The translations under genes were made by a program, and so were the position numbers. Below are positions 6,001-64,000 of a DNA stretch of 64,000 bases, one piece after another; within the stretch, counting starts at the first letter, position 1; each line of letters starts with the position of its first letter. The DNA comes from a virus (lineage: Duplodnaviria; Heunggongvirae; Uroviricota; Caudoviricetes), in IMG/VR virus record IMGVR_UViG_3300028805_000044; one strand, given 5' to 3'. The notes beneath the pieces are model-generated. The model made no database searches. It was given only the letters and a program-made list of their open reading frames with translations, and had not been told where the DNA came from.

Positions 6001-6611
6001 AAATATCTATAAACAATAAGATATTGGTTAGCTAAGAACTTCTCTATGTTTTCGTTAAGAGATTTCTAATCATCAACAATAGCAGAATCTTTTAACGTTT
6101 GTCCAATTCTTACTACAGTTGTCAGTCCAAGTTCTCTAGCAAAGTGAGTTTTAAAGTACTCCTTAGCTGGAAGATTACCTGCAAAGAACTTGTCTAGTAC
6201 TTTACTTAGACGTTGTGAAGCTATTTCTTCACGACTTTGTAACTGTCCGTCTATAACAGCTGTTAAATCTACTTCCTCATCTCTAGTTATTTTTCCTTTT
6301 GGATAATAATGAGTTTTAATATTCTCAATGATTGTTTGAGAATCAGTACCTCCTCTTTTCAAGTCTAGAGATTTATTATTCTTCGCATTAGCATCTAATA
6401 GATCCTCTAGTTGTGAAGTCATCCTGTCTATAGACTATTTAAAGTCTTCAGGATTTACAGAGGATTCTTCAGATAAACTATAGTTAGGGACAGTACGATC
6501 AAAATTCTCGATTATTGCCTTAACCATATCACTGGCATTTTGGACCTCCAGTATTTCTACTGGAAGTCCTAATGCATCAAGTTTCCCAAAGTTTGGTAAT
6601 TTGCAACTCAT
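1..6611 (-). CDS. Giant virion-packaged RNA polymerase-like protein, 3'-truncated by the window edge (>2200 aa, TAG read as Gln)
   Basis: ATG at 6611 overlaps the upstream TGA (ATGA). Track fragments ending at 6066, 4680, 4224, 3792, 2949, 2325, 1716, 1266 and 978 share one frame and all end in TAG. The frame appears open to the window edge. Motifs DSHDGAAFINP, GTVKKPI, YGIQMDADH and KKYPGLGAV, the size and the position after the cargo genes fit crAss two-barrel RNAP. The catalytic DxDxD motif was not seen within the window. Confidence 0.65.
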
Positions 6612-15583: not shown

Positions 15584-17475
15584 TGTTCTTGTAATATATC
15601 ACTACCTATATACTGTTGTTTGTCTACTTTACCAGAAAGAATATCTTGGTAGTTACGCTCATATAATTCTCCAGATGAATGTTTAACTTGATCCCCAAAC
15701 GAGCTTACGGCAGCATTTCTATTTGGGTTAAGTGGTATATAAATGGTACCTCTATAAATATCATCATATCCACCTTCAAATAACCAACCAAGTCCCCAAT
15801 CATCTATATCTACATTATAGTTGGAATTATCTTTGTCTGTGCTAAGTGCTTTAGACATTCTATCAGCAAGAGCCTTATCGGGATTACTTACCTTTTCTAC
15901 ATATTTAGAATTAGTATCAAACTTCCATCTGTCAGTAGTATATCCAGATACCATTAAGAAAAGTCCAAATCGTCTAGGATCAAGACTCTCTGAACCGGAT
16001 AGGTATTGGTCAAGGCCCTCATTCTTAAGTCCTTTAGCAAGTTCTATTTCCCAAGCCTTAGTTCCTTTAGGGGCCTGTATTTCACTAACAATCTTTTGAT
16101 ACTTATCCATTATAGATAGGTCTACTACTTGGTTACCATATTCATCAGTAGTAGCTGGAAGTACTGCTACGTCACCTCCACCTTCTGCATACATAATATC
16201 TTTAAGATTTTCAGTAGGAATCCTTTGGTTACCCATTGTGATTCCTGCATAACTCTTAGTAATACCACCTATACCACTAGTTGCAAGTAATTCACTGATA
16301 CTCATGTCTCTTCCAACTTTATTAAGTAATGGATAATGAGTACTATTAAAGTTCATTGCTTCTTGTCCTTCTCTTGTTATAATAGTAAGTTGTCTAGAAG
16401 CACCTCCCTTTTGCTCTAACATCTATGTAAGTGGATTATCGTTCTCATCACCGGGCTCTTTAGTTGTCTTAGAAGACTCTTTCTTAGTCCCATCTGGGTT
16501 AAGAGAGACCTAAAGAGTGGGTTCAAAATTATATGTATCAGAAGTTCTAGATAATATAAGACTAGAAAGAGTTTCAGTTGGAGTGCCTCCAGTTGAATGT
16601 AAAGCAAGTAAAGTTCTTTCTTGAGGAGTGAGACTATTATAAACTGCTTTTAAAGCAAGTTGTGCTTGTTCTTTCTAATCCTTAGTAATTACAGAGTTTT
16701 TATAAAGTCCATCTACTGTTAAAGTTCCTGCTTCCATAGCATTTGTAGTCTTATCCTAAAGAAGAGCTAGTCCAGATTTTATAGCATCTGACTATTTAAC
16801 AGTATAGCCTTCTATTTTCTTTTCTGAAGTTCCAAGGTTTTGAACCAAACTATTAACTTTCTTAATAACTTGGTCCATTCCAACTCCAGTCATTGTATTA
16901 TATATAGAGTCACCAAATGGAAGTTTTGTTTGTCTAAGGTTAAGTAATTCTCTGTTGGTAAGTGCTACATAGTCACCTTTTTTAAATTCATCAAGAGTTA
17001 CAGCATCAATACCTTCTCCATCGGATACAACTACACGTCCATTTCGATCAACAGCAATTTCATCTAAACTATTATTAGCTACAAGTTCCTTACGTGCTTC
17101 TTCATAATGTTCTTTACCTTGAGCAAGCATATTAAACTTACCTATATTATTAAGATAATAACTTACTAAAGAAGAATATGATGGTTTACCACTAAAAGAA
17201 AACAAAGTATCATCTTCAAACATCTATTTAAAGTCTTTAAGAACATACTGAACATCAATAGGTAAACCCTTTACGTTATCAAATACTTTAAGGACATCCT
17301 TAATACTAAGTTCATCCTTTTCAGAACTTTTAGAAGAGCGTCCAGAACCTTCAGAAGAACTAGCAACAGCAGGAGCATAAGCCCCTGCGGTTGTACTAGC
17401 ACTTGTTGGTATATAATTTACAGCTAAAGAAGCGAATTCGCCTCCTAATTGAAATTTTTGTACTTTTATTTTCAT
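15580..17475 (-). CDS. Putative internal virion (cargo) protein, 631 aa
   Basis: Fragments 17224-17475, 16792-17223 and 15580-16422 are in one frame joined by TAG; the gap was checked and has no TAA/TGA. ATGA overlaps at both ends. N-terminus MKIKVQKFQLGG. Confidence 0.75.
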
Positions 17476-20400
17476 CTTCTTCTTCTACGTCTTGAAGGTC
17501 TTAAATCCTTAATCATACTAACGTATCTATCATTATCTCTACCTCTAGCTTTTAGTTTGGCTATTTCAAGTTTTGTTCCGTCCTTTACTTCAAGAACAGT
17601 TTTATAACCTCCTCCAAACCAAGGTGTATGATACATATTATAATAGGCTTGTGCATAGTTACCTCTAATATTTCTAAGAGCCTTAGCTTGTGCAGATCTT
17701 ACATAAGCTCTTTCTTCATCAGTAAGACTCTGTCCAGACTGATATTTGTCCATAAGAGCAGCGTACTTAGAATCGTTTTCATAAAGATCTGATTGAGCTC
17801 TTTCTTCTGGACTACCAAGTTGTATTTCCTTAGCTTTATCAACTAAGTCTTGTTCACGTTGATACTTCTTTAGTAACCAGTTACCCGTATCAGATATAGC
17901 TCCCATTAGAATATTATTGTCACCACTTCTCCAAGCAGCTCTAATTTGTGCCATCATTCTTGCTCTATCTGCTATAGCCTTTCTATTGTCATCACCAACC
18001 TTAATATTATAAAGATAATCTTCATTGTCAATATTCCAAGATTTACCTGCAGTTTCAAACTGTCTTCCAGAATCTTCCATAAAGGCCTTATCCATTACAT
18101 CACGTCCAACTCTTTCTGTCTCAAGAGCAGTAGCAAAGTTAGTTTGTTGGTCAGCGCCTTGTTGTCTTTGTTGAACTCTGCGTAAGTCTGCAAGTTCATT
18201 TTGACCATGCTTTATACGTTCTTGCCATCCAACTATAGCTAACTTCCTATCTATAGGATCACGTAGTGGAGCTTGGGGCATCTCTTTAAGAAGATTTCCG
18301 TAGATATCTCTATTTCCAAGAAGTCCTTGTATTGTTTTACCTGCTACAATAAGTGGTGTTGGATCAAATGGATTCTTTAACTTGGTAGACACTACTGTAT
18401 CTCTTCCTGTTTCAATATCTCCAGTTCCTTCACCTCCCATATCTCCAGGTTTAGCCTAAGCAGCCATTTCTTGTAAAACTGTTTCATTAGGATTTGTAGG
18501 AGAATTAGCTTGAGCAGCTCCATCTAATGGCTTTATTCTATAATATTTATCATCATAGTTATTATCCATTACATAACCTAATTCCTTTAACTTTTCATTA
18601 AAAGTATTAAGCTATTCTGGAGTCCAGTCATCTAACCTACCAAGAATACGTCTATCATCAGTTATCTAACTATAATAGCCGTCAGGCCCCCAATTTTGAT
18701 TAACATTGTCACCTGTATTTCTTGAAACCCCTTCAAAATCATAGCGAGTGCCATAATGAGGCTGTATACCAAGAGTATTAAATCCTCCAGGCTTTGTAGT
18801 AAATCCATTACCTTGATTATAAGCAACTTGATATGCATGTGTCGTATAATCACCGGAAGCCTAGGCATTAAAGTTACTTCCAGCTTTAGCATACATCTAG
18901 GAATGTTGATCTTGCATACCATTTAGCCAATCAACAGCTGCCTATCTATCACTTCCTTCTAGATCTTTAAGTCTATTTATAATAGTATCGCCATATCCAC
19001 TAAATACATCATTATACCAAGTACCTGCATTAGAACTTAACTTTACACCCTTTACTGCTTTAATAATACCTCCATTTCTTAAAGCATAAAGAATACCTCC
19101 AATTTCATGTTTTCTTCTCTTATGCTTCTTCTTTGATTGTGGATTAGGTTGCGCTTTAGGTTGTTCTGTTGGTCTAGCAGCATATTTTTCTCCAGTTGGA
19201 TAAGGCTATACCTTAGAAGTTGTATTATGTATATTTAAAGGAGAATCTGCTGGGAATATATACAGTTTACTATAATCTCTCTTAGGAACTATAGGTTGAT
19301 TTCTTCCAGAATAATAAGCTTTATAAGGATTTATTCTAGTTAGAATACCTCTTATATCAACAGAAGGATTAGCATTTTCTGCTTTCTATACTAAGTTTTC
19401 ATCGCTAAACCAACCTTTATGTTTATTTTGTACTTCTATTGTAGTTCTACCGGGTACCTCTTTAAAGGCTCCAAATCTAGTAGAAGTATTCCAAGGAGCA
19501 AAACGTGTTTGATTTAAAGTGACTCCTTGTCCCATAAGTTCTTCAGTGAGAGCTTGTCTAGCTTTTGTTCCTCTTGTTTCTCTTAATTTCTTAAATGTTT
19601 CATCAGAAACCTTCTGCTTACCTTTATTTGTATATATATAATGTTCAGGTTCTGTAGTTGTAGTAGTCTTAGTCATCCCTGCCTTTTTAACTTTAGTAGC
19701 AACAGAACGTCCGTGTCCAGTCATTATTTGTAATGCTTGTGAAACATTCTACCAGTCTTGCACACTCATACTAGATGGAGAAGTAAGTTTCATAATAGAA
19801 TTCTTTATTTCTCCAGCATTAGCAAGACCATTAACTGTGTTTACCCACTACATCATTTTAGGAACTGCCCACATAAGATTTCTTGCTATCTTAGCACTCT
19901 TTCCTACACCACCAAGACCAGGAATAAGTCCCATAACATCAGCAGCAAGTCCAAATCCAGCATTTTTAGTAGCGTTCCATAGTCCAGCTCCATCTGCTAG
20001 ATCAGCACCAAAGTTAGTAGCTGTACTTCCAAGTCCAAGAACTGCAGAAGCAGCAGTACCGTATCCAGGAACAAAAGCAGCTCCCATAGAGGTTATATCT
20101 GCTATAGTAGCAGCTATTCTAGCAGTTTCTGAATTAGAGAACTAAGAATTTTCTTCTTTTGTTTCTTTCTTAGGAGCAGGTTTCTATACTGGTTTAGGAT
20201 TATTTACTTCATCCCAAGAAGAGAAATCAAATCCACCACCTTGTTGTAAGAATTCAATTTTACCTCCTTCCTTCTAAGATGGAATAGTATAATTAAGCTG
20301 TTGTGCTATATAAGGATTACCAGTATCAAGTAAGTTTGCTTCTTTTATACCTTGTCCAGGTACATAGAATGCATATCTACCTGTAGAATTATCAAGACTT

Positions 20401-40438: not shown

Positions 40439-40960
40439 TTAACCAATCCACTTCAAGTCATTTAGACGATTTAACCATCCTTTTAGAAATTTCTTATTAG
40501 CAGGTCTAGAATTAGCAATAGAAACAAAATGATCTTTACGTCTTAACCACAACTTATTAAATAAGGCTTTTTGGTCTGGGTAATTATTTATAGCATAAAG
40601 TGTATTAGGTCCTACAATTCCGTCATCTTTGACACCAAGCACTTTCTAAGGATATTTTATTCCATAAAGTCCACTTGCCCATACCCAATCCACTAGGAGA
40701 TTAGCTATAGATTGACTATTTATCTAGTCTGCCTTCCATCTATCCCAATACATAGTTTTTAGAATATCTGTCCATTCTTCTTGTGTTATATTTTTCAAGT
40801 CCTATTGAGTTGGAGTTTTCTTTCCTTTTTTAGCTCTATATGCTGTGTAAACAGCTATAGTAACTCCTTTCATTGTGGGACCTCCTTTATCTGCTGGGTC
40901 GTTTGACCAACCTCCTTCCCATTTAAGGATGTGTGGAACTAATTTATTTATATCAGCCAT
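40439..40960 (-). CDS. Glycoside hydrolase family 108 endolysin with C-terminal peptidoglycan-binding region, 173 aa
   Basis: [24 protein letters not shown] is the GH108 EGG..DP.D.GG.T..GVT signature. Three in-frame TAGs (40802, 40724, 40646) give WKAD[Q]INSQ and YP[Q][12 protein letters not shown]. Ends ...[19 protein letters not shown]. Confidence 0.9.
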
Positions 40961-44200: not shown

Positions 44201-45752
44201 ATCTTATGACATTTCCATTTTCGTCATAATTTATGTTTTCATTTGGATCTTCACTTGGTTCTTTATAATGAGAAGATTGCTAATAAAGTCTAAGATTTAC
44301 TTCATCTTCCCCATATGTAACTTGAGCATTTAGAGACGAATCATATGTAATAGTAGTCTTTTTATCCAGAATTGAATCTGCAAGCTATATTATAAACTAC
44401 TTTCCTATGATATTACATACAACAGCATCGTAGTACTTTATACCTCCATATGTCCATTTCTAACATCTAAGAATATCTCCAGGCTTAAATACTGGAAGAC
44501 CATCATCATCGAAAGTTACTATATAGTAATCTCCTCCAGCAAAGTATTTAAAGTAAGAATATATAACAGATATATAAGAAGCTATATCTACGTTTCCTTC
44601 TTCTTTTTCTTGAAGATATCTTGTATAATCATTTCTAGTTATTATAGGAAAGGTACAATCAAATACAAATTCATCACTGAATAAACTATATATCCTGTAA
44701 TTTTCAGCATTTGTATCATTAAAGTAAGATCCAGCATAACTAGTATCTACAAGAGTCTTTACTATCTTAGCATTTCTAAGAGTTTCATTACTCCAGCATT
44801 GCTTTATAAATATTCCATCTCCACTTGCTGTAGAGAAGGCAGCTACTGGGTCAGTAAAGCTCTTATATTCTATTGGATCAAAAAGTCTTATAAAGAATTC
44901 ACCCTAATGTCTATTTAAACAGAACTTATTATATTCAGCAGTATCAGCAAAGAAACTACTTTCTTTTATTTCTAGCTTCTATACTGAGGTTACTTTACCT
45001 GCATTTGTAATCCATAAAGAACCATTAGTTGCTGATATTCTATTAACTACGAGTTCATATACTTGCATAAGTTTACGAACTACAAGATTATCTATAGTTA
45101 GAGTATTAGTATCAGCGTCCATTCTCCAACCATAGCCTCCGAATCCACTAGAGAATTCGGGAGTTCCTATACTTCCATGCGTTACGATATCTTTATAGAA
45201 AAGAGTAGAAGATTCAAACGTAATAGGCTTTCTAAAAGTCCAAGCACCGTTAATTTTTTCGTCTCGATTTCTTCGAGTGAAAGATTCTCCTGTCTCTCCA
45301 TTTAGATATCTAGCATTTAAGTTTTCGACAAGTGTAGAGCTATTTACATAAAGAGGAGGACCATTCTTTACATATATAGCAAGTCTACCTGTCATTGTAT
45401 CTCCAGAACGTTTTACATACCCAGTACCTTCAGGAGCCACATTTATGAGTTCTAAGAGCTCACCATCTATAAATAAATATAATATATTGCTTAACTTATC
45501 AAAAACAAAAGTTCCTTCTTTAAATTCAGTAGTATCAAGTCCTTCTATACCTTCTACTACTTTAACTCTTGAAGTACTTATATTAGGATCCTCTCCAGTT
45601 AAGCTTCTAATAACTTCTTCTAAAGTCTAGGATTTATTTCGGGACTTGATGTAGATCTTACCCAAAGATTCTAACACCAAGTCAGCCGAAATATTACCTA
45701 CGATATTGACTCTCTTGCCAAATACTGTATCTGTTCTAACTAAATTATCCAT
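41250..45752 (-). CDS. Large tail-associated structural protein, 1500 aa
   Basis: Starts MDNLVRTDTVFGKRVNIVGNISADLVLESLGKIYIK. Contains tail-fibre-like motifs YVKRSGDTMTG, GFGGYGWRMD and LTIDNLVVRKLMQVYELVVNRISATNGSLWI, plus ARLGNLNGIQD. One frame through TAGs to TGA 41250 (the middle was only spot-checked). Confidence 0.7.
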
Positions 45753-48700
45753 TTATTTCTATCCAAGTTTGTGGTATCCAAGAAGCATCGTGCATACCAA
45801 CGAATGTGCTAGCATTAGTAATAGAACCTTTATTAACACCTTCGACGTATCCAGATACATTTCTAATACGCGTAAATTTACTTGTATCAAACAAAGGAAT
45901 TGAACCTCTTAACTATCTATTGTTATTAAACATACCAGAGATATTAACAATACGTGGGTTGTATGGATTATCATTACCTTGTGGATCAAACAAGATAGAC
46001 TGAATAATACGTAACCCTCTATCGTAATCTCTAGCATTAGATACTTCAAATAATCTACTAACGTTCTGTAATTCAGAACATCCAGCAAATATACTCCAAC
46101 TTATTTGTGGATTTTCACCTTCATTAGCTTCATAATAATCCCATTCACTAAATAGTACATCTTTAAATAGAGAAGATACATCAGTAAGTTGAGTATTATT
46201 AACTAATAAATCTGAATTAACATCCACTCCAACTTCTATAAATGTATTCTAGAAGAGTCCTTCTATGGAAAGAAGATTTGGATTATTTTTCAATAAGTCT
46301 GGAGGATATTTAATACCTCTACATTGAGATGCAGGATATCCATGGTTAAATTTATAACTATTAAAGTTTACAAATGCACAGAATCCAAGTCCTGCAAATA
46401 CTGAATTAAATTTAGTATTATCAGGAAGAGCTTCAAATAATTTACAAGGTAATCTACCAACGAGTCCATCAACTACACCTGTAGATAATCCATTTACACC
46501 TTCATCGTTTGTTGTAATAACAGAAGTTGTATATGTAAGACCATTAAATGCTCCTTGTAAATCACTCTCAGAACTACAATATCTCAGATAGTCTGCTGGG
46601 AACATATAGTTCTAATAACCTACTTCTCTATCTCTAGCATCTGACAATGCTTGTAATTGTTCATTATCATATCTAAAGACATTATCATATAGATCTGAAT
46701 AATAAGGAGAATTAGTAAGATTTGGATTTATAGTAGCCCAGTCACGTCCATCTATATAGTAAGGATCATTTCCGTCAAAATTGGTAAAATCTAACTGGAA
46801 GTTCACTCTAGTTCCTGGAGTCTTAATAACTATATTATCCCAAGAAGTCTACAATTCCATCTTATTAAGAACATAAGGAGTTCCTATATCTAGTGTTCTA
46901 TTTTTGGTATATCCCAATTTGTAACACCCTGCAAATACAGAACTTATATTTTCTATAGTTTGTTGTATTTGTCCATTTCTCTCCATATAGAAGAACTTAT
47001 AAGGAATAGTACCAAATACTCCAGAATTATAAAGCATACTCTACACATTTGTAAGAGCACAATTTATAAATCCTTCTCCTCTTAGCTATATATTTAGATT
47101 ATGAGCATTATCAAATAGATAAGAAACATCTTTCAATGAGGTACAATCTCTAAATAGTAACACGTCTGGGAATGTATATGTTATACCTTCATTTGTAAGA
47201 GTTTCATTAGAGAAGAATCCTTGTACATTATTAAGTGCAGTACAACCTTCAAATATATCATTAGGAATAGTAGAATCTGTAAATGTAACTCCTCTAAATA
47301 CATATTTTGCTTGTAAAAGAGTAGATCTAAGATTAGTAAACATTTTACTCATCTAGAATAAATTACATTCTATACTTCCACCACTCATTTCAAATGGAGC
47401 ATTTATAACAGTACACTTAACTATTTCGTATTCTCCATCAGAAGTAAGTCTTCCTCCAAATACGTTATCGTGAATTTCTCCAACTAATTTTATTCCTTGA
47501 TATATAGAAGAATCTATAGTTCTTACTGTAATAGGAGTAGGCCAGTGGAATAAATAATCAAATGTAATTCCATCTACAACTTCAGATTCTATATCCATAC
47601 TAACCTTAGAACATCCAGAGAACATGCCTTTTGGGAATGTTGGCAGATTCCTTAAGTTAGTAAAGAAGGTCTTAGACTTAAGTCTTCCATTAGGAATGAG
47701 AGAATCTCTATTTACTAATTGATAGCTCTCTAGATTATAACAATTAGAGAACATATAGTCTGCTTCTAATAGTCCTATATAATCTCCATCTAGAGGAGCA
47801 AAAGCATTATTATCTATAAATTGTAGAGCTGTTCCACTAAATGCATTAGATGCTTGTTGTAAGTGGGGTAAGAAATCAAATGTTCCATATGTAGTAGTAT
47901 CCTAAGCATTATAGCTACTCTTTCTAGAATAAATACCACCTCTTACAGAAGTACTTTCTAAGAATGAATTTATATTAGTTACATTAGGACAATGCCTAAA
48001 TAAATCATATCCTATTTCAGCATCTATTCCATAACAATTTAGGAACATCTTATTTAGAGATGCTATATTATCATGTAACTTAAGCATTAGCATTACAAAA
48101 TCACTTCCAGATAAAGAAGAACATCCATTAAACATTTCATCAGTAGATGTAAGACTAGTGTCAAATGATATATTGCAAGCGTTTGCATTATTTATAAATG
48201 GAACTGGATATTGTAATACTGGATAGTTACTATATATAGAAGGAGAATTAAGTGTAAGAGAAGCACAATCCAAAAACACACGAGTGCCCATGATAGTAAA
48301 GTTTCCATGTAAGAATTGTAAACTACTACAACCTGAGAAAGCTCCTCCCATCAATCTTATAGGATTATCTTGATCATTTACGCATTTAATTCCTTGTACA
48401 TTTCTATTATCTGTAAGTGTAAGCATCTACAAATCTTCAAATTGTTGTAAATCAAGATATGTAGTAGCAAGTGGAACTGTATTATCATATTTTAGATAAC
48501 TGATATTGTTTCCACTTAGATTAAGTTCTTTCAGTGTAGTCCAATTAGCCTTAGATGGGAATGTAATATTTGTAGTAAGTATTCTTGCTAATTGTACATT
48601 CTCTAAGTTTGAAGCACCTACAAGATTTATTTCTAACTCTTGATTATTCTAATTATTGAAGCTTACGTATTTAAGTCCAGGACAAGCAGAAACTGTAAAC

Positions 48701-51700
48701 GATTTTAGATTACTTATATAAAGTTGTGAACCATAGTAATCTGCTATAATGGTATGAATACCGGGGCAGTTACCTATAAATACAGTCTTGACACTTGCTG
48801 GAATTGTAAGTTGTTTAAGTTTTGGACAGTTTCTAAGATTTATTGTTTCTAGCTCTGTACATCCATCTATAATAAGCTCTTCCAACATAGCTTGATCTTG
48901 ATACGTAAGAGTCTTAATTTTAGTATAAGACAGGTCAAGTTTTCTAAGTACTGAACTACTAGAAAGTGGAACTTCACTGAATGATGAATTAGATACATCT
49001 AAAACCTCAAGATTTGGAAGTTGCTATGCTATATTAAGAGGTCTATATACAATATTAGAGTTAGAGTCAAGAAGAGTAACTCCATGTAAATCCAACTTAA
49101 CAAGAGATTCTAGGTTACTAGCATCAGTTAAGAAGTTATCACTTCTAATATTAGATTGGTCTCTAAGACTAAGCTCCTTAATAAGTGGGAACTTAAGAGC
49201 TGAAATAGTATTCCAAGTAAACTGATTAAAATTATCTAAGGATGTTAAATAATTATTAGCGAATATAGTAACAACCTGAGTACCACCTACGTTATTAATT
49301 CTGTATTGTTTTGGATTTTCATCAATCCAGAATGACATAGGACGTGCAGACGTTGCTATTGTAATACGTATCTAACTTTCTGCAGTAAGACCTAATGATA
49401 CACTAGTTGGGCTTATGTTGGTGATATAAGTAGCATTGTTTTCTTTCCAGCTATCATATAGAGGAGTATTAGTAACACCTGTAAGAGTGCTATAACCTTC
49501 AGTATTTACTCCATATACACCATCTAAGAATTTGATTCTCTTTACAAACCAGTCTTTTACGTTAGCACTACCGTTACCATGTAAGTAAGAAATCTCACTG
49601 TAATTATAAGTATTATCACCATAAGTACCAGTAGCAGGATTATAACTCTTCTCTACTTGTAGATATTTAAGATAATAGTCATAATTATAAAGAGCAGGTC
49701 CAACTTTATTTATTTGTCCAACATAATATTTATCAATAAATTCAGCTGGGTCTGGGAAAAGATTAGTACGCAGGTCTCTATATACAGATTGTAATGATTT
49801 AGCATCCACACTATCAGGGCGTATATTCTCTACTATCTCTTGAAGTCTTGTATTATATCCAGAATATTCCTAGTTAAATACTCCAGAAATAGAAGAACAG
49901 TGATTAGTTACACGCGCCTCAGCTAGAGCTGATGTATCAGTATAATATCTATGTAAATGAGCATTATATGGAACAGTTTCAGCACCTACGTTGTTTACAC
50001 GTAATGCAGTATCCATATCGTAGAAACACATATACCAAATACATTCACCAGCACTTGATTTTGTCCAAGAACGTAAAGTTAAGTTCTTAGCCATAGAGTC
50101 TACAAGTCCAAATACGATAGCTATCATATAATAACTAACCATATTGTTCCAATTCATATAAAGGTCTAGTGTAGATTTTACATAGTTTACAACGTCATAA
50201 GATGGATAGTACTCTCCTGATTCCTACCAAGTACCTTCTATCTTTTTAAGTTTAGGTGTTTGCCAATCATTCTATCTATATACTTTTTTATCAGTTTCTA
50301 TATTATAGCCAAATGAAGCCAAGAATGTAAGTAATCTTCCAAGATTTGCTTCTCCCTGTCCATCTGAATCATAAGGGAATTCAAATACTCCTTCTTTCAG
50401 TATATCAGGATCATCTTGGTCAAACATAGCTATAGCACTGTTCTCTTGTACTTCCATAGAATAGATAGGAGAACCTGCTTCTACCGATGTTTCTTCAGAA
50501 TAAGAAGCTACCATTCTAGGATATGTTTCATCTTCTGTAGTATAAGTAACACCATTTAAAAGTTTAAGACCTAGATTGTAGTAAGCATAACGTCCTAAGT
50601 TGAAGTTATAAATACCCATACAACGACAGTTAGCTACATTACTACCAGTTGCTTTAAACTTTATAAATAGGATACAAGGATAACCTTCAGATGTATGTTT
50701 TACCTTACTAGCATATTGATATCCACTCTTTTCCATTGGAGGAGTATTATCAAGAGGTACAATCTTTACAGTATTTCCTTGGTTATCTTCAGTAGTTACA
50801 AGTCCGTTTACTATACTACCAACAAGAATGTTATTTACGTGAGAAGAATCCATCACGTCAGCCTTTAAGGTATATCTATTCTCTGGTAGCCAATCCTCTC
50901 TCATTTGAACAAGAACATCTTTATTAGTATCGTCTTGTCCCATATAAATTTCATAGTTCTTACTATTATATCTAAGAGAAGAAGTACCCTGAATACCTAT
51001 AGTCATACCTGTTCCGACTGTATTATCAATACGAGTTGGAGTAGCATTACCCATTGTATAATAGTCTATATTTATAGGGAATCTGGAAGCCATCACGGTT
51101 TCTTTAAGATCCTCATTGAACTTTGCTTCAGTAATTCCTAAGAAGTCAGAATCAGAAGTAAGCTGATTTACTACAACAATTGGATAAGGAATACGAGACT
51201 CTGCTAAAGCACTTACAAGACTATTTAATAGTGAGTTAGCATCTTTGTACTCAGATTCATCATTTTCATCAAAAAGTAAACTATGATAATTACCATCAGT
51301 TCCAATCTAAATGAAGTTATTTTGTAACATTTCATTCTAAGTGGACATATCTGGATTATCATTAGGACCTAATTGACTATATATAGTAGATGATATGTAA
51401 TTTTGAATTATTTCATTATCTGAAAGTGCAGTAGAATAACCTTTAAAGTCATATACGTGTACAGAACAAGCATCATATATTTCTCCATCTATTACTCTTC
51501 CTCCTATGTGTAGATAATCGTTAAAGTACCATCCATAAGCTCCACTATTATCAGTATTAAATATCTGATTAGAAGTATGAGAAGTAATCATAGAAAGTAC
51601 ACCATTTACATAGGTCTTAATAAACCAGTGATTAGGATTTGCCTCTGTATCACCAGGACCTACATAACGTTGTCCTACTATATCTATAGTTACTAAGTCT

Positions 51701-53445
51701 CCCTTTGTAATATTAGAGCTATATTGGGCAGTTTGTACTGCATATAATACTTTACCTGCTTGTATTTCTATTCCTGCAAGCAAGTTCTGATTTTCATCAT
51801 ATTTGCCAATACAAGCAACTACATCAGAAGAATCAACGTTAGAGTCTGTTCTGAATGTAAATGAAAGTGTCCATCCACTACCATCTAATAGATTTACTTC
51901 GTTAGCATTTTCAGAGAATAAAGGAAGCTCAAGATCTGTCCAAGATTTACCAGATAAGTGCATTCCTTGCATATCTGTTTGTTGCATAAATCCAGACAAG
52001 TTATGACCTTGCATATTTATATATCTCTATTGAATCACACCCTGACTACTATATGGGAATCGAGTATTTCTGTTATCATACATCCATTCGGTAATATTAC
52101 CAGTTGGAATACCCATAACAGGAGAGAAATAAGCAAATAAACTATTATTAAAGTTTGTGGCTGTTATGTATTTAGTTGCTGCTTCAGATAAAGTAAAATA
52201 TAACTCTTTAGTATCTTGAATAGCACTAGAGTCAACAGATATCGCATTAAGGGTTACCTTTACAAATTTATAAGAGTTATTATCAGTATCATATATAGTA
52301 TCGTCAGGAAGAGAAGAAGTATTAAATAGGAATTGTTGATTTACATCCTTAATAACCTTACTTATAGTTCCTGTTACTTGTCTTGAATCGTTCTCTATCA
52401 ACATTCCATTTTCAAAGTAGCATGGAGTTACAGTATAATATACATTATAATAAGAATATGCTACCCTAGAATATGTAAGTTGATAATTAAACTGTATACT
52501 GTTTCCATAGACAAACTTATTTAGTTTAGCTAAGTCTACATTATTAGTAGGCACAGTTTTATCTACTCCATATGTAAGAATATACAGAGTATTAGGTTGT
52601 ACGATAGTGCAACTAAAAGATACACTTTCAGAACGTAATAAATTATCATTAAGTACACCAACAGCATAAATCTCGAAAGTAAAAGTTTCACCAATAGATG
52701 TACTTTTTCTTTCATCTAGATAGTTTACGATAGAGTCTATTCTAAATTGAGATTCTTTTGCCTGTGGAATATCAAAGCTATCAATCTAATCACCATTACA
52801 TAATACAACTATATTAAGATCGCTATCAGTACTGTTTGAAGCTGTAATAACTACCGAACCAACTGGATTTTGTGGATATATAGTTGAATTTGGAACAGAT
52901 GTCTATGTAAGTTTGATTGCTCCTGCAATTACAGTAAGAGTAACTGGAGAAGCATAGTTCTATCCAGAGTTAGCATTTATAGTAAGTCTATTGGTAGAAC
53001 TTGTGAGATTGTTAATCTTTATTTCAGAACGAGTAAGAGAAGTAATTACATAACTTCCTTTTGTATTACCATTTTCGTCTTGAATTATTACATTAAAGTT
53101 CTTTTTAACACTACCTCCATTAATTGTTATATGTACGGTTACAGAAGTTCCAGAGGTATAGACTCTGTTACCTTCTTCTATATCTATAGTATAAGCAGTA
53201 GAGTCACCACCTCCACCACCTCCGCCTCCACCACCGCCTTTGGCTCCATTTTGATAGATCCAGGCGATGTTCTTTTCGGCTTGGAATATTCTATTATCTA
53301 ATTTGGTAAAGCCCTAATCTACTGATATTGACTCTCCATTCTCGTCTACATATCCGGGATTGGAGAGTTCAATATTAGCAGCATTGGAAGCTCCATCAAT
53401 AACCCATTGCTGAGTTCGCTCGTCCCAATGTTTTATTTTACTCAT
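45745..53445 (-). CDS. Giant multidomain protein, 2566 aa: Gly hinge, Ig-like/LamG region, CotH-kinase-like domain, leucine-rich repeats
   Basis: Fourteen track fragments are all in one frame and end in TAG. Starts at an ATGA overlap (53442-53445) and ends TAA 45745. Motifs: GAKG9 hinge, WTLSFTFRT (LamG-like), GIQGTSSLRYNSKNYEI, YTLKADVMDSSHVNN, GIYNFNLGR, DSMAKN, WYMCFYDMDTA, and repeated MFxGCxxL/LxxL units. Confidence 0.8.
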
Positions 53446-55049
53446 ATTACGATAAATGGTCTTGTACTTAATCTTGGTTGATTAGTTGTTATCATACTTT
53501 CAACTCTTCTTGATGTTCCATCAAATAAGAAGCAGTTTCCATCGTTAACCATAAGACCTCCCCAGTACCATCCTGAGTCAGAGCTATGATAATCGTTAAG
53601 ATTTCTAACCTATATAAGATCTGCAGGTTTACTTGGTAATAGAGGACATTTTAAACGTCCAAGAACGTTCTATATTCTAGCTATTTTTGTAAATGCACAT
53701 ATCCATTCAAGTGGAGTTCCTAAAGCCCATTGATGTTGAGTTCCTCCAGTACCAGGAGCATATTCATAACATAAATATGGAGCAGGAAAGAATGTAGGAG
53801 TACTTCCCTCTGATGTTCCCATTTGCCATACTGTATAATAGTCTCCATTTGTATTTACTTGAGGTTTTACACATCTACTTATAATATTTGGAATCAAGAA
53901 TTCATTAGCAGAACCAAAGAATTTATAAGGATTACCTCTATCATTTAAAAGATTTGGAGAAGGAGGTAAATCCTTAAGAAGTATCGGATTAGCAGTTACA
54001 TCATCACTAGCTGCTACCTGCATATATGGACAAGGAGAATAGTAATGTCTGCTATATTGATATTTATGGTCTGACTAATCTGAAGTAGCCTGTATTTGTA
54101 TTGTCTATGGAGCGTAATAACTACCTCTATAATAAGGGTTATTCATAGTCATTCCTCCAGGAAGTACATACGAAGGATCTCCGTCGTGACAACATTCTAC
54201 AAAAGGAGTATGTCCTTTCTAACTCCAATCATAAACTCCAAGTATATCATAAGTGCTTCTGAAATCAACAGCTTCTGTATAGCTCATATTACCTGAAGGC
54301 TTGTTAGTACTTACTAAATCAGGCATTTCTTCTTCTGTATCATATTGAATAGGTCCATCAAATTCTCCTCTATGGAATAATAGACCAGTATAAGGAATCT
54401 ATGAATAACATTCTATATTGTCTTCATGCCATAACATTTCTTCAAGCTTAGGAGCAAACATACACCACTCTTCATAATGGTCTTCACAACTCTTTACATG
54501 ACCATCAGTATTGTCATAAGCTAAGTTTTCTAAACCTATAAAATGGGCATGTTCATCAAACATTCCCTTAGGAATTACACAAACACCAAGAGCTAGGTCT
54601 GTTATATTTTCATCGTACTCTGCTGTATAAAGTTCTCCATTACTTCGTTCGTAAAGAACACACCCTACAGGTATGTCTGAGACGAAATCATTAGTCTTTG
54701 ATACAGCTTCTTGAGCATTAAATACACTATAATATCCTACAGTTTCGTGACTAGCAGTAAGCGTAGCTTGCTGGGGAATTACCCCAGCAGCTAACGTCTT
54801 TTTCTATGTTCCTTGTAAAACTACTTCAGTTATACTAGAATCTTTAAAAGCATCTTCTTTAATTTCTGTTATTGTATGTGGAATCGTTATTTTCTAAATA
54901 TCACAATTCTTAAAAGCCTCAGCTTTAATTGTATCTGTATCCATCACATACTATATCTTATGTTTCCCGTTTCCCTATAACGTAGCTCTTACTGGAGTAG
55001 TGAGATTATTTATTTCTACACCATCCACTAATATTTTAGTTACTGCCAT
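53442..55049 (-). CDS. Protein with N-terminal BspA-type LRRs, 535 aa (mostly missed by the track)
   Basis: Checked codon by codon from MAVTKILVDG (TAATG overlap) to TGA 53442. Contains TIKAEAFKNCDI[Q]KITIPHTITEIKEDAFKDSSITEV, typical LRR_5 repeats. Confidence 0.75.
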
Positions 55050-58000
55050 TAATTACTATTTAGTAAGGTTACTTGTTGTCCATTATTTCCTGTTAATTCT
55101 GCATTAACTACCGAGTATACACTATTACCTTCTTGGGGCTCAGCCCCACCACCAGGCTCTTCATTACCTCCAGAAGTAGCATAACTTAGCTCTACAATTA
55201 TATTGTTAGAAGGATTATTCTGTCCATTTCCAGGAACCTTTTCCAAGTCAGCAGCTGTATAAGGATTGTTGTAAGTATAAACCCATCCTACACTTGCATC
55301 CATAGATAAAGAAGTAGGTTTAGTCTTAAATACTCTTCCAAGAATTCTGTCTCTTTCAGTTGTAGAACCTGCTGGATTTGTAACTTCTGTTCCCTTACCA
55401 ACTCTCCATAATATATAGTGTGGATAGTTCTGGCCTCCATTCTTCTTTTCCGTAGCGAATCTATCAGTAGAAGCAGCAGTACCCTTAGCTGGGTAATAAG
55501 CTTCTAGCCAAGGAATATTAGCAGTAGGTAATTCCTTATTAGAAGTAGTCTTATAACCAGTAGCTTGTAAGGTTACATATTTAACATATGTTTGTTCATG
55601 TCCCTGTCCATCATATAAGTCTCCAAACTGTACAAGATGTGCTTTATCACCGCCCATAGAAGTGTACCAAGCAGGATATGTTATCTCTCCATTTTCTACA
55701 TGATAGTCTGGATCATATACGAAAGGTTTCATTCTATTATCAGGATTATCCCTCATAAGACGTGAACAGGTATAAGTATGCTTGTGTCCACCTATACAAA
55801 GTCTAAAGTTATTATCTTCTAGGAATTTACTGAACCAATAATTACCCACAGAATTTAAATGCGAACCACCTCTGCTATAAGCTACATTTTCGTTTAAGTC
55901 TCCATCCAAGTAGTTATATTTAACAGTATCTCCACTGGATGTTCCATAAATTTGTCCTCTAGTAAGAAGTGTAAATGGATTGTCATGTGTAAAAGCAACC
56001 TTCCATTTTATCTTGTTATCTATATGTTGTAAGTCATTTACACACCACTGTTTAATAATGCTATATATTCCTGTAGGACCTGTAGGATCTCCGTCAGCAC
56101 TATAGTTACTAGAAACTCCATACAAATCTTGTTGTGTAGTAAGAGTAAACTCTGAATTCATGCATAGGAAGTATACATCTCCATATATAAATGAATATAC
56201 AGAAGGAATATACTTATCATTACTATCAACAATAGGCATATCGTAAGGGAATTCAAAAGTAAAGAAAAAATTAATATTTTCAGGATTTACTTTATTAAGG
56301 TCTTCTCCAGTTCCCAGAACTTTTGGATCAGCAGAACACAAGTCATTGTTACCAATAGTGAACATTTGTTCTATATTTCTATAAAACCTAGATGCATCAC
56401 GATAAAAAGCTAACCATTCATTTAGACGATTGCCATTCTATGTCTGGTCACCTGTATTCATTTGCCATTCATAAGCAAGATCTGGATCGTTATCGCCATC
56501 ATTCTTTATAAAATCAGCAGTAATTCCCCAAGTTTTGTATTCTTCATCATGGAATCCCTATTGGTCTGTAGTTTGTACAAATTGGAAACCTCTTTCAATT
56601 ACCTTGTCTCGATTTCTCATAGTGAATTGGTACGTATCAGACCAATGCCCATCTCTACCAACTTTATAATTATATACCTAAGTATCTTCGGGTTCATCAA
56701 AATCGTGAATAAACTTGTGAACAGTATAGTCTTCACCAGAGGTAGCTACGTTTCTAATCCTATTATAAATAGGACTGTCCCAGTTACGACCATTACCAGA
56801 ACGACCATCGCCCTCTTTAAATGATTCATAAATATCTGCCTGGTCTTCTGAAGTACCAACTGGCCATATTTTAATAAATTCATCGTAGTATCCTTTAGAA
56901 ATCCAGTTGAAGCAACGAGTTCTATGAGCATTCCATCCAAATGAGCAGTTAACTACATTAGGACCTTCAACAAGCTTTGCCTTATTAAAGAATATACTCT
57001 TTCCTTCCTTAGAATTACATGGTTTATAATCATTTATATCTACTGAAGGATTAACATTTGCTAAATTGAAATAGGTCCACTATGCATTTGCACTATTATC
57101 TAGAGCAGATGGAGCTTTAAGAGCCTATTTAACTGGATCCATATTAAAATATCTAAATATTAAGCAATTATTAGGAGTAAGTCCAGTTCTTCTATTATTA
57201 AATGGAGACTTACAACATTCCATGCCTTCACCTATACCTATGAGATCGATAAAGTACTTAGCTACATTACCATCCTTAAATAGTTGTGTAGAAGTAAATG
57301 GATGTTCATCAAATGGAGTGGCAAGTCCAAGAGCATAATCGGCTTGTTCTGCATCCTCGAATCCTCCACTTAGATAAATAGAACAAGAATATCCCAATTT
57401 AAGAAGTCTATTTTCATCCCATACAGAATGAGCTGAAGTTTCATTTGTTGCTGCTACCTCAAGAACTTCTGGATTCTTAGTGTTAGCATAAGTCCATTCC
57501 ATATCGGGTTCTCCCACTCTTATCAAAGTTGTATTTGAATCATAAACTGAACAAGGAGCACATCTTATTAAGAATGTTCTACCTGCTGGGATATGACCTG
57601 TAAGAGGAAGAGTAATCCACTATCTACCATTTACAGCAACTTCTCCTTCAGAGTAGTGAAGATAAAGTCCATTAAGATTAAGATCCTAAGTAGAAATATT
57701 ACATAATTCTATAAAACTATGGGATACGGGATTATAACTATATTTATCAGAGTCTCCTCCACAATAAACCATGTTTATATAGACGAAAGGACTTTCTACT
57801 GAAGAATGTTCACTTAAAGGATAGTATAGAGGACTATACATACCTCCAGATAGGACTTTCTGAGAAGTTTTCAATACGCTGTGTGATTTATCTACTAATG
57901 TGAGATCACCATTCTTTACACCTAGAACATATAGATCATTGTTATTCATCATATCAACGAACTCTATACCAGTGATTCTCTTATAATTATTAATCGTTTC

Positions 58001-58948
58001 TTGTATAATTCCGTCCATGTCTGTTTCTATATCAATTGGTTCGTCGGAGCCTCCTCCGCTTGTAGCACCAATCTTTATTAATTGATAAGTTTTTGGATCT
58101 TTAATCCATAATGTCTAAGTATCATAGCACCATAGCAGTTCTCTTTCTTCAAAGTCATCTGCATGGTTTTTCATATAAATCTAAGTACCACTTTTTACTT
58201 TTAAGCAATAAGTATTTGGACAATGTTCTGCGTTTAGATATTCAGGTTCAGGAGCTTCATATACTTCAGTATGGGAATTCTCCTCCTAAGTTGCATTATC
58301 CTCTTCTTCAGAAGTTCCATAATTTGGCTCTTCTGAGGGTAAATCGTCTTGTGATGTAGACTTATTATGTGAGAAGTCTCCTGGATCTATCTCTGTCTAC
58401 ATATACATTAATCTATTTACTTTTTGCTATAAGATGTTAAGTACCTTAAGCATATTTTGAACAACATCAGACGAAGACTAATAACCTTCTTCAGATGTAT
58501 CAATCCATATTCCACCTTTATCATCCGGAGGAGTATCTTGAATGTAAATTTTTCTGAATGACTCCCAATATTCACCATTCCAAAAGCGTAGATCATCTAG
58601 ACTATCTATATAGACTATTTGACCTCTCATTTGTAAAGCAGTTTTTGTAGCCAATTCATCAAGGTCTTCCACAACCACGAGAGAAAGACCTCCTCCTCCA
58701 GAGCCTCCTTGTCCTTCCCAAAGTTCCCAAGCACCATTTCTATATATAAACATATGTGCATCATCGGCAACTTCTTTAACATAGCAGAGCATTCCATGTT
58801 TTAGTTTGTTAGTGGATAGGAAAGCATTCATTTCCTCGATGGTTTCTACCTGAATATAACCACCTCGTAAGTCATTTACATCAGCAATAGCAAATTTTTG
58901 ACCGTTCTTTGGTCTAAATTCTGATATAATTTCTAAAAATTCGCTCAT
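55049..58948 (-). CDS. Structural protein with lamin-tail-like and purple-acid-phosphatase-like (FN3 + calcineurin-like metallophosphoesterase) domains, 1299 aa
   Basis: Fragments 58478-58954, 57686-58018, 57125-57526 and 55049-56365 are in one frame. Lamin-tail-like LNGLYLHY...W..LPLTGHIPAGRTFLIR. Phosphoesterase motifs FVQTTDQ[Q]G, MNTGDQT[Q]NG, TIGNNDL, FTHDNP and IGGHKHTY occur in the canonical order. Confidence 0.8.
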
Positions 58949-60789: not shown

Positions 60790-63700
60790 TTATTTAGTTT
60801 CTAGGATTCGTATTCGTTCTTCTAATTCTCTTACTTTATTTTCTAATTGTCCTACGTAGAATGATAGTATTGAAGGATAATTAACTGTCATATTACCTTC
60901 TTCTCCATCTCTAAACATTTCTGGAACTTCTTGAGCAATTACTCCGTAATGCCATTTTTCAGTATCCCTTAATTGGAATTTACGGATATGCTCGGAGAAT
61001 GAAGAGATATTTTGTTTTTTAGCACGGTCTGAGGTTGTATAGAAATTAGCAGCATAGATATTATCATAATAAGGATTACAATAAATTCCACTAGTTCCAT
61101 ATATATGAGTACCGCTACCCCAAAGCATTTGATATGTTGAGTTACTATCATTATTATAATTTATTGTAACAGAACCTGCACTATCAGCATAACCTGCCTT
61201 TATTTTCTCCCAGTCAGTTGACATCCAACTACCTCCCCTATACCTAAGTATTCTAAGATATGTATCATCGTAATTGAGTTGCAACATATGTCCATATGCT
61301 CCAGCAGATTTACCTGCAATTATGGTTTTCTCTGATCCTGGGTTATTATATACTATTGCTCCAGAAGCAGAAGGCATAGTATCTGTAAACCAAGATTTAG
61401 CAGAATCTGCAGGAGCGTCATCTGTCATAGGAGATAGATAGAATCTTACAAGATCTGAAGCATGTAAACTATCTACCATATCTGAATTAGAAACGGTCTA
61501 GCTGCTTATATTAGAAGAGGTAATAAAGGTTCCCCAGCCTGTACTACTTCCACCTACAATTCTTCTAAAACGAAAATCATCAGAATTAAAACAAAAAGCT
61601 AAATCAACGTAGTAACCAGTACTATTTCCATGATTTAGTATAAGGTGTGAATACCAATCATCAGCAGGATTTTGAAAAACAGTTGGGTCAGTACCTACAT
61701 GGCCAGTATCTTGTGCAAATTGCAATCCTGTTATTCCATATTGTATCGTGTTGTAGCTATTAAGATATCTTACTGCTTGGGAAGCAATATTATATGCTGT
61801 TATAACCTCATACGCAGAACCATAGGATGTACCAGTATTTTGTTGTGAAGAAATGGCAAATCTTGGTTGACCATCACGCATAAAATGGAGCGCACACATA
61901 TAAGGAACATCTCCACCATTGTATCCATTAATCCAAAGAGTATCATGCCAAGTAGTTCCCATACCAATATCAGCATATCTTGTCATAGCAACTCTAAGTC
62001 CAATATTAGAGTTAAAATATGTTTGAGGATTTGGTTGGTCATCTCCTATATACAATGTTGGTAAATAATTTGCAGCGTTTACACTCATAGAACCTATATG
62101 TGCAACTCCTCCATCTGATGTTAAAGCATAAGCGGAAGAATTGGTTGGTGTTTGATAACCACCTGCATATAGTAATGTATTCCAGCCGTTTCTTCCATTT
62201 CCAAAATAATAAGCAGTTATATTTGCAGCACCTTCTCTGTTCTCATCTTGATAATTGAACCATACTGCACCACTAAACCCTGCAGATATGAAATTAAATT
62301 CGTTACCTGCAGTTAGTAGATTATTAGCTGTTCCTCGATGCGCAAACTGATAAGCATGTTCTCCGTCAACCATATCAGCATTTCCGGCAGAATCTGCATA
62401 TCCTGCATAAATTTTTTCCCAATCGGAAGACTACCATGTTTCACTTGCTTTACGTAAAATTCTTAAATATCTGTCAGAATATCCCATTTTAATAATTGTA
62501 CCATAACTATTATTAGTGTTCATTCCAATTAAATAAGAATACTCATCTCCATAAGAATTACATACAAATGAACGAGGATGGGATTGAGCATAAGAAATAG
62601 CCCAATTAATTGGACTATCTCCATATGTTGAATCCTAAGGAGATGCCACTCCTTCTGACCATAAATATTTATCAGGTTGAACTCCTATTTCAGTAAGTGT
62701 CCATGAAACATTTGCAGTGCCGTCAAAATATTTTCCAGTATTTCCGATTGTGAAAAGTCTTGCAGTTTGTAACTTGGTTGCTGTTGCCGCATTACCAGAT
62801 ATGGATATGCCCCACGTTCCACTTGCACCAGTACCATCTCCCATAGGAATACGTTTCCAATCACTCCAACCACCACCATTGCGCTGCCTTAATCCCATTA
62901 TATAAGTTGGGTCATCGTCTATCAATATCTGGAAGCCAAAATTTGTATTATCCCATCCACCATCAATGATAATTCCATTTGAACTGAGTATTGATGTATC
63001 AAAATCCGTAAACAGGTATGCGTTTAGTTGATTTGCCCAATGTGCCGCATCGAGAGCATCTGATGACTTTACAACTGGCTTATAGTTAAGACCAGCAGCA
63101 CTTGCACAAGAACCACTACTTGTTATATATCCGCTGTCGTTGGTAAATGATGACACATTTGTAGGCCTACCACTGACGTTAGTCCAAGCTACAGAACCCG
63201 CAGAGCTTGCGTAGTTTACTGACTGAGAAGCGATATTTCCACTTGTAATAACCCGACTACCATTTTCATAGAGTGTTGTGGCATTGGCAGAACCGTTGAC
63301 ATCAAGTTTGTAAGAAGGTGATGTCGTGCCAATACCGACATTGCCTGTTTTTATGAAGATGTTTCCATCTGCATCCCAGTCATAAGGATACTCGTATTCG
63401 CTACCGAGTCCTTGGTCACCCCATCTTGAGGTAAGCAGTTTTATAGACGTAATAGAGGTAGCACCTGTGGTGTCTTGCGGGTCTTTCGTTATTGTAAGAC
63501 GAAGATAATTTGCGTCTGTGGAAAGTTGACTTGGAATTGAAATCCATATTGGAGCAGCGTTGATTTCTGGACGGAAACTCGACGAGTGTAACACAGTCCA
63601 CGTACTTCCATCAGAAGATTTCTCTATGACGATTGTAATATGTGCCTGCGTTGCTTGGTAAGCAAGACCTAAAACCATCCATCTTGACATTGTATACCGA

Positions 63701-64000
63701 ATACCACTACTCCATACCCAGCGAGAACCTGTCACGCCTGTTGGATTTATAATACTTATTTTAACTGCTTCTTTCTGCGCAAAAACACGCTTGTCTAAAG
63801 TCGCAGCAGTCCAATTTACATTGTCGGTTGTTGTATAATATGCTGGGGTTGATGCTCTGCAAAAAGCAAAAACGTCATGCCACAAATACTTTGGTATTGG
63901 AGATTGAAAAAGAGAGGTTGGGTTTGCAGCAATAACGGTACTATTACTTACTGAATAAGTAATTCCGTTAGCATTCTCCAAAATGCCGCCAGACAATGGT
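60790..64000 (-). CDS. Tail fibre / receptor-binding protein with C-terminal S74 intramolecular chaperone, 5'-truncated (>1069 aa)
   Basis: Three fragments in one frame joined by three TAGs. Fibre motifs GNVGIGTTSPSYKLDVNG, WGISISGNAATATKLQTAR and YFDGTANVSW. C-terminal TSDRAKKQNI...GVIAQEV followed by a coiled coil. Confidence 0.85.

Follow-up and report, generated by a model that had tools for sequence, protein, structure and literature searches.

Known CotH proteins of bacteria and phages

CotH of Bacillus (PF08757; structures 5JD9 and 5JDA) is a 42-kDa stand-alone enzyme. It is a kinase of spore coat proteins, as a preliminary description of the DNA studied here had stated, but the word extracellular used there is not strictly correct, since CotH acts within the mother cell on the spore surface. 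Here we describe a CotH-fold domain from a tailed phage (Caudoviricetes; IMG/VR record IMGVR_UViG_3300028805_000044). In contrast to the Bacillus enzyme it is one domain of a 2566-aa multidomain protein, encoded on the minus strand of the 64,000-nucleotide stretch that we analyzed and refer to as the window. We found that the domain has the fold of CotH and that its putative active site is nearly invariant among homologues.

Giant phage proteins with CotH-like regions are known from work on diversity-generating retroelements (DGRs). In the survey of Wu et al. (2018), category f1 consists of phage-associated targets of about 2000 aa whose 'primary motifs are CotH and Laminin_G_3' (PMC5758913). 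The 'domain group 3' of a 2024 preprint holds Bacteroides DGR proteins longer than 2000 aa with CotH-like active regions, motifs for carbohydrate binding, as well as leucine-rich repeats (LRRs) (bioRxiv 10.1101/2024.11.15.621889), and Benler et al. (2021) also remark on such CotH proteins (PMC8008677). These giant DGR variable proteins resemble the window protein in exceeding 2000 aa, in being phage-associated and in carrying the CotH-like region beside a carbohydrate-binding module and LRRs. Public viral annotations include 'Spore coat protein-like protein [uncultured phage cr124_1]', 'Spore coat protein H kinase fold, TRANSFERASE' and 'CotH kinase protein'. The CotH assignment of such phage proteins is thus already known from the DGR literature and from database annotations, and the window protein is a further case of the known phage giants that combine CotH, LamG and LRR parts.

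Judged from its sequence, the window gene is a non-diversified, non-DGR form. We did not find an RVT_1 reverse transcriptase in the 192.6-kb genome or a template/variable repeat pair for the gene, which gave a single 54-nt match at 81% identity elsewhere in the genome. No C-type-lectin variable region was detected in the window protein. The metagenomic locus L006 encodes bAvd and a reverse transcriptase (L006:21989-24121) about 8 kb from a 3605-aa homologue (P0165), which fits the DGR literature.

Orthologues of about 2600 aa, with the CotH domain at approximately residues 780-1300, are encoded by crAss002 (gp20, annotated 'transferase/internalin-J, LRR') and by SJC03 (gp83) and the DAC phages. 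Further orthologues are the 'internalin-like protein' of cr52_1, cr109_1 and IAS virus, and the 'spore coat protein-like protein' of cr124_1. The crAss-like and SJC03 orthologues are 24-34% identical to the window protein. In the literature on CotH together with Crassvirales, crAssphage or internalin-like proteins we found no study of such a protein, and the crAss002 paper mentions neither gp19 nor gp20. Nor did we find described, in the literature searched, that the putative active site is conserved almost universally, that orthology extends from end to end between Crassvirales, SJC03/DAC and the recoded phage, that phage G shares the LamG-CotH-LRR core, or that the pairing with a phosphoesterase gene is strict. 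A scan of genome contigs returned three contigs of metagenome-assembled genomes only, probably binned phage DNA, and gave no evidence of a cellular homologue of the subfamily.

Other phage kinases, of the T7 gp0.7 type and of the HipA family of 'Gratiaviridae' (PMC8008677), also belong to the kinase-like superfamily, but their families are different ones, and the proteins are small and either early or cytoplasmic, whereas the kinase-like domain of the window is part of a fibre-like giant.

Amber recoding and the read-through gene

Translated with table 11, the region of the CotH motifs (49500-51100) yields minus-strand open reading frames (ORFs) of 95-274 aa. With TAG read as glutamine, 45745-53445 on the same strand becomes one ORF (P0001), which has 22 TAG codons in frame, is free of internal TAA and TGA, and ends with a TAA/TGA stop at 45745-45747. 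This is the 2566-aa read-through protein proposed in the preliminary description, and its residues 4-2561 align with residues 5-2617 of crAss002 gp20 (2622 aa). SJC03 gp83, a 2657-aa protein of a Bacteroides phage, aligns with it over nearly the whole length. Both of these genes use the standard code and have no internal stops.

The short ORFs obtained with table 11 could be taken to mean that the motifs are chance occurrences in fragments split by genuine TAG stops. We rejected this reading, to which we give practically no weight: the protein is collinear from end to end with standard-code orthologues, the genome carries a tRNA(CUA), and TAG read-through closes nearly all large genes of the window, which is a single-strand array of large genes. 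The structure model of the CotH-like domain spans three TAG positions and is a coherent fold. Because of the collinear orthologues, the tRNA(CUA) and the coherent model across TAG sites, we conclude that the read-through gene is real. The amino acid encoded by TAG cannot be read from the alignment with crAss002 gp20 and SJC03 gp83, where the TAG positions are variable. We take it to be glutamine on the basis of existing knowledge about crAss-like and Lak phages with amber recoding.

The source virus record has a length of 192,624 bp, is 100% complete according to CheckV, and encodes 23 tRNAs including the one with anticodon CUA. This amber suppressor, labelled Pyl by ARAGORN, is located outside the window at G000:C1:35700-35789, on the opposite strand to, and separate from, the other 22 phage tRNA genes (2283 to 20294). 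The closest DNA matches are to gut metagenomes of sheep, cattle and goat. Contigs identical to the gene are present in the RNA library of one sheep-gut metatranscriptome; DNA carry-over is possible there, and we do not count them as expression. At the tract that encodes poly-Gly, contigs of the DNA run and of the RNA run alike break or diverge (loose ends at 53206 and 53238); the GGN repeat may vary in length there, or may have confused the assembly.

The CotH-fold domain

The atypical kinase-like domain covers residues ~760-1314 (49504..51168; this and all features of the protein given below are on the minus strand). All motifs listed in the preliminary description are present in the translation, in the order given there, between residues 819 and 1146. 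These are QGTSS (residues 819-823, 50977-50991), SKNY (residues 828-831), YTLKAD (residues 858-863, 50857..50874), GIYNFNLGR (residues 944-952, 50590-50616), DSMAKN (residues 1116-1121, 50083..50100) and FYDMDT (residues 1141-1146, 50008..50025). In brief, YTLKAD stands at the end of a strand before an alphaC-like helix and holds the candidate nucleotide-binding lysine K861, DSMAKN is the putative catalytic loop with D1116, K1120 and N1121, and FYDMDT is the putative metal-binding motif with D1143 and D1145.

Residues 760-1340, when excised, match Pfam CotH (PF08757) with an E value of 9.5e-5 and 22.5 bits. The best stretch, residues 1090-1166 against profile positions 161-221, spans DSMAKN and FYDMD. 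Twelve of 36 orthologous domains match the same profile at E <= 0.01 (best 4.6e-8), and one orthologue, P0109, is over the Pfam cut-off with 28.7 bits. A search with the family profile also finds two shorter proteins, P0274 (31 bits) and P0275 (42.3 bits), both of which are over the Pfam CotH cut-off. P0275 has the motifs QGTSS, LKVD, DNFAKN and FYDMD, and hhalign aligned the family profile with it at a probability of 99.3% (E 2.6e-20). PHROGs assigned the 2566-aa protein to two 'unknown function' families only.

An AlphaFold2 model of the domain was built from a 36-sequence alignment (predicted local distance difference test, pLDDT, 76.7; predicted template modelling score, pTM, 0.82). Foldseek against the PDB matched this model to Bacillus cereus CotH, 5JDA (4.7e-7) and 5JD9 (7.3e-7), both with probability 1.00, and these were the sole matches at E <= 0.001. 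The identity to 5JDA is approximately 12%, and about 200 residues are inserted relative to Bacillus CotH. The assignment to the CotH family, made at first from motifs only, is thereby supported by a modelled fold, by Pfam on the excised domain and by the profile matches of relatives. Because of the Pfam, orthologue and hhalign matches and the Foldseek match of the model to 5JDA and 5JD9, we regard the domain as a true homologue of CotH that has diverged strongly.

Conservation of the putative active site

With a hidden Markov model (HMM) of the family we aligned 261 full-length homologues, among them those of crAss002, SJC03, Lak-B5 and phage G; the lowest domain identity to the query is 24%. 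K861, K1120 and N1121 are kept in 260 of 260 homologues, D1116 in 259 of 260, and D1143 and D1145 in 259 of 259. Q819, G820, K829, D866, S867, H869 and R952 are kept in at least 258. K829 and K861 are both invariant, and either is a candidate for the ATP/phosphate-binding lysine. Strong constraint on the putative active site extends over at least 574 clusters at 50% identity.

In the model, D1116-x4-N1121 follows a long alphaE-like helix (domain residues 340-353) and D1143 follows the next beta-hairpin, which would place them at the catalytic-loop and DFG-equivalent positions of the kinase fold. Substitution of D228 or D251 abolishes the activity of Bacillus subtilis CotH (PMC7821199). These two residues are 23 positions apart, versus 27 for D1116 and D1143 of the window protein, or 22 without a 5-residue insertion seen against P0275. 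From the topology and the local Pfam match we infer that D1116 and D1143 are the equivalents of D228 and D251.

At long range, identity is 56-70% in the N-terminal 66 residues of the protein, 35-44% in the kinase domain and 17-28% in the immunoglobulin (Ig)-like and LamG domains. Residues that are invariant amid Ig and lectin domains drifting this far form, as a sequence pattern, that of an enzyme and not of a scaffold. Most likely, we suggest, the CotH-fold domain functions as a phosphotransferase that depends on Mg/Mn and ATP.

An adhesive role has been proposed for the CotH surface proteins of Mucorales fungi, and by analogy the phage domain might be a catalytically dead CotH fold that serves as a structural or adhesive module of a fibre. 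The large insertions and the low identity to 5JDA would agree with this, as would the position of the domain amid adhesion-type modules (Ig-like, lectin, LRR). One paper (PMC9973265) discusses the Mucorales members of the CotH family as spore-surface and virulence proteins. However, the lysine, the Asp-x4-Asn and the two aspartates at kinase positions are invariant in about 260 sequences in which the surrounding domains are so dissimilar, and because of these catalytic-type residues we consider a purely structural role unlikely.

Domain organization of the giant protein

The N-terminal module (residues 1-66, 53248..53445) is modelled as two short beta-hairpins and a 25-residue helix and is a putative virion anchor. 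It is followed by a poly-Gly hinge (residues ~69-80, 53206..53241), evident in the translation and disordered in the model (pLDDT < 50). A second model, covering residues 1-790, has a pLDDT of 81.9. In this part of the protein, residues ~85-425 (52171..53193) form three Ig-like or macroglobulin-like beta-sandwich domains, for which the Foldseek matches are the domain arrays of alpha-2-macroglobulin and complement C3.

Residues ~425-700 (51346..52173) adopt the jelly-roll beta-sandwich fold of concanavalin A (ConA)-like or LamG-like lectins, and the best match is the sugar-binding module of an arabinanase. Pfam gave no family for residues 430-760 at E <= 10, and hence no Laminin_G profile match. 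The LamG-like flank of the preliminary description stands as a ConA-like fold.

Canonical LRRs occupy residues ~1330-1720 (48286..49458), with Pfam matches to LRR_4 (40.3 bits, cut-off 27), LRR_EndoS (28.0, cut-off 27.9) and LRR_At5g56370 (27.7, cut-off 27). Residues ~1721-2566 (45748..48285) hold degenerate BspA/DUF285-like repeats and a variable C-terminus. HMM matches from residue 1720 onwards are weak (LRR_5 with 15 bits, DUF285 with 13-18 bits), and the F-x-x-C repeat core occurs in 12 copies versus 1.4 expected (maximum 6 in 2000 shuffles). The repeats had been described before as LRR/DUF285-like; the LRR part of that statement is confirmed, and the DUF285 part comes down to the weak matches and the F-x-x-C cores.

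The distal repeats and the C-terminus are the most variable region among close relatives. A conserved N-terminus, a Gly hinge and a variable tip are, at the level of sequence, the usual signature of an N-terminally anchored fibre, and the domain order together with the hinge is a tail-fibre layout.

Linkage to a metallophosphoesterase gene

A second fibre-like protein of ~1300 aa is encoded upstream (55049..58948, minus strand). It has a Gly hinge, a lamin-tail-domain (LTD)-like domain and a purple-acid-phosphatase-like metallophosphoesterase domain. Metallophos is matched with 22.6 bits (cut-off 21.5) and LTD weakly. The metal-ligand motifs D / GD / GN / H / GHxH are kept, and an invariant GNND replaces GNHD in the crAss-like, Lak and phage G copies. 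The protein has an N-terminal module of its own and a Gly hinge, GQGGSGGGG, at about residue 90.

We surveyed this linkage in the 80 best IMG/VR loci. A phosphoesterase homologue was found upstream of the CotH gene and on the same strand in all 80, and in most of these the two genes abut. An upstream position on the same strand is also seen in crAss002 (gp19, 'phosphatase'), in SJC03 (gp82) and in two metagenomic loci, L005 and L006. In crAss002 and SJC03, both of standard code, it lies directly upstream of the CotH gene without an intervening BspA gene. The window has such a gene between the two, encoding a 535-aa BspA-type LRR protein (53442..55049, minus strand; LRR_5 34.6 bits). Of the 80 loci, two near relatives (L008 and L010) have the extra spacing of ~1.6 kb that would match it and 78 lack it, and the gene is apparently a lineage-specific addition. 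In the probable source run a contig joint skips 53442-55180, with 20 letters on one side, which is too weak to use.

The same cassette of a metallophosphoesterase and a CotH-like giant occurs in Bacillus phage G, as gp352 'metallophosphoesterase' and gp353, and in the Lak-B5 megaphage, as a 1570-aa and a 2896-aa ORF. Phage G is a jumbo phage of Bacillota and Lak a 540-kb Prevotella megaphage; both are of unrelated lineages and hosts, and their giants are 22-30% identical to the window protein. The alignment with gp353 also covers the LamG-like and LRR parts, and that with Lak-B5 the CotH domain only. In the phage contig L091 the partner, again upstream on the same strand, combines Pur_ac_phosph_N, Metallophos and LTD; a Gram-positive host is suggested by the peptidoglycan-binding domains of the endolysin. 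Inside the crAss-like phages the linkage could be due to simple shared ancestry. Its recurrence in Lak, phage G and L091 argues for the phosphoesterase and the CotH giant being a functional pair.

The cassette of L091 (L091:5326-17091, standard code) has its giant gene split about 20 residues past the FYDLD metal motif. A gap of ~1.2 kb with a 275-aa NUMOD3 homing-endonuclease ORF follows, and the C-terminal part (1672 aa, LRR_5 and DUF285) resumes in frame ahead of the called ATG. An Rfam scan gave no intron family for the splitting element, which may be an intron or a free-standing endonuclease insertion.

The nature of the partner and of the preceding lectin domain raises the question of the phosphate acceptor. 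Secretory-pathway kinase-like folds include glycan kinases (Fam20B, POMK). The phage domain might be an active phosphotransferase whose acceptor is a glycan or a precursor of the envelope (a capsule, lipopolysaccharide or teichoic-acid unit, for example), and together with the phosphoesterase it would remodel phosphates on host-surface polymers at adsorption or late in infection. In favor of this, a ConA-like lectin resembling a sugar-binding module directly precedes the kinase, the region from LamG to CotH aligns with gp353 of phage G and the same pairing is found in the DGR survey, and the fibre-like partner protein bears a purple-acid-phosphatase-like esterase. However, the sole characterized CotH enzymes are Ser/Thr protein kinases (PMC7821199), no sugar-binding site was identified beside the active site, and ATP is scarce outside cells. 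We judge this account possible rather than probable, and a glycan or envelope acceptor a serious alternative because of the adjacent lectin domain and the esterase.

Neighbouring genes

In the order of transcription, the region encodes a 1068-aa protein, two small ORFs, the phosphoesterase, the 535-aa BspA-type LRR protein, the CotH giant, a 1500-aa protein and an endolysin-like protein. The gene for the 1068-aa protein (60790-63996) has its 5' end beyond the window. A C-terminal sub-threshold match to the Peptidase_S74 intramolecular chaperone suggests that its product would be a self-cleaving tail fibre or spike. The 1500-aa protein downstream of the CotH giant matches a 'tail fiber' PHROG. 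The endolysin-like gene (40439-40960, 173 aa; PHROG 315, E 5.8e-40) is located between this fibre block and the downstream genes, for which there was one 'virion structural protein' PHROG match only. Apart from these matches PHROGs gave almost nothing for the neighbour genes.

The position of the gene bears on a further reading, in which the giant is packed into the virion and injected as an effector that phosphorylates host cytoplasmic proteins early, with the LRRs used for substrate recognition. LRRs are target-recognition modules in many bacterial effectors, and ATP is present in the host cytoplasm. Crassviruses do carry and eject several very large cargo proteins (PMC10172136), but the CotH gene is located in the fibre block upstream of the capsid genes and not in the downstream cargo/RNA-polymerase block. 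The protein is also rich in beta-sandwich, lectin and LRR parts and has a Gly hinge, whereas the cargo proteins of crAss001 are predicted to be alpha-helical, and a conserved N-terminal anchor with a variable distal end is typical of fibres. Because of the gene position and the beta-rich, hinge-containing build we consider an ejected effector less likely, and on the whole improbable.

Proposed role of the CotH-type giant

The best overall explanation, which we hold with moderate confidence, is that the gene encodes a giant tail-fibre-type appendage whose CotH-type phosphotransferase is active inside the infected cell while virions are built. The phage would be a crAss-like, amber-recoded phage of the ruminant gut. 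From the N- to the C-terminus, the appendage would consist of the anchor, the Gly hinge, the three Ig-like domains, the ConA/LamG-like lectin, the CotH-fold kinase, the LRRs and the variable BspA/DUF285-like distal part. Catalysis would depend on the loop D1116-x4-N1121, the metal site D1143/D1145, and K861 or K829 as the phosphate-binding lysine. The kinase would act in the infected cell while virions assemble, because ATP is plentiful only inside the cell; a parallel may be seen in the phosphorylation of coat proteins by CotH as the spore is assembled. The lectin and LRR modules may position the kinase on its target, and the CotH giant would probably work together with the metallophosphoesterase-bearing fibre-like protein encoded upstream. 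As to the acceptor, a protein is our first guess, held at somewhat under an even chance, followed by a glycan or other small phospho-acceptor as a fair rival to it; that there is no substrate seems considerably less likely.

It should be noted that several observations weigh against this explanation. A kinase on the virion surface would find little ATP once outside the cell. The N-terminal module, the putative virion anchor, gave no structural match, and the structural atlas of crAss001 (PMC10172136) does not mention kinase, phosphatase or leucine-rich. The excised domain is 1.3 bits short of the PF08757 gathering score of 23.8, a marginal miss, and the full-length window protein gave no CotH match in Pfam at E <= 1. 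No sequence search tied the window domain directly to the solved CotH chains: phmmer with the domain, P0274 and P0275, and hmmsearch with the 36-sequence profile and a catalytic-core profile, gave nothing or noise against them. We did not obtain a residue-level alignment with Bacillus CotH, and the pairing of D1116 and D1143 with D228 and D251 comes from topology and the local match instead.

crAss-like phages are among the most abundant viruses of the mammalian gut, yet their giant structural genes mostly lack a functional assignment. The present analysis gives a firm fold assignment for one of the largest of these, and reveals a strict phosphoesterase linkage that spans phages of Bacteroidota and Bacillota. 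The cultured phages that bear orthologues (crAss002, SJC03/DAC and phage G) make the question of virion-associated phosphorylation testable. More tentatively, and as a less likely reading, we speculate that the phosphoesterase and the CotH giant may constitute a conserved 'phosphate-editing' module of two enzymes that moves horizontally and is displayed on tail appendages of phages as unrelated as the crAss-like phages, the Lak megaphages and Bacillus phage G, writing and erasing phosphates on components of the virion or the host envelope to control adsorption or assembly. If true, such virion-borne enzymology would be of a hitherto undescribed kind.

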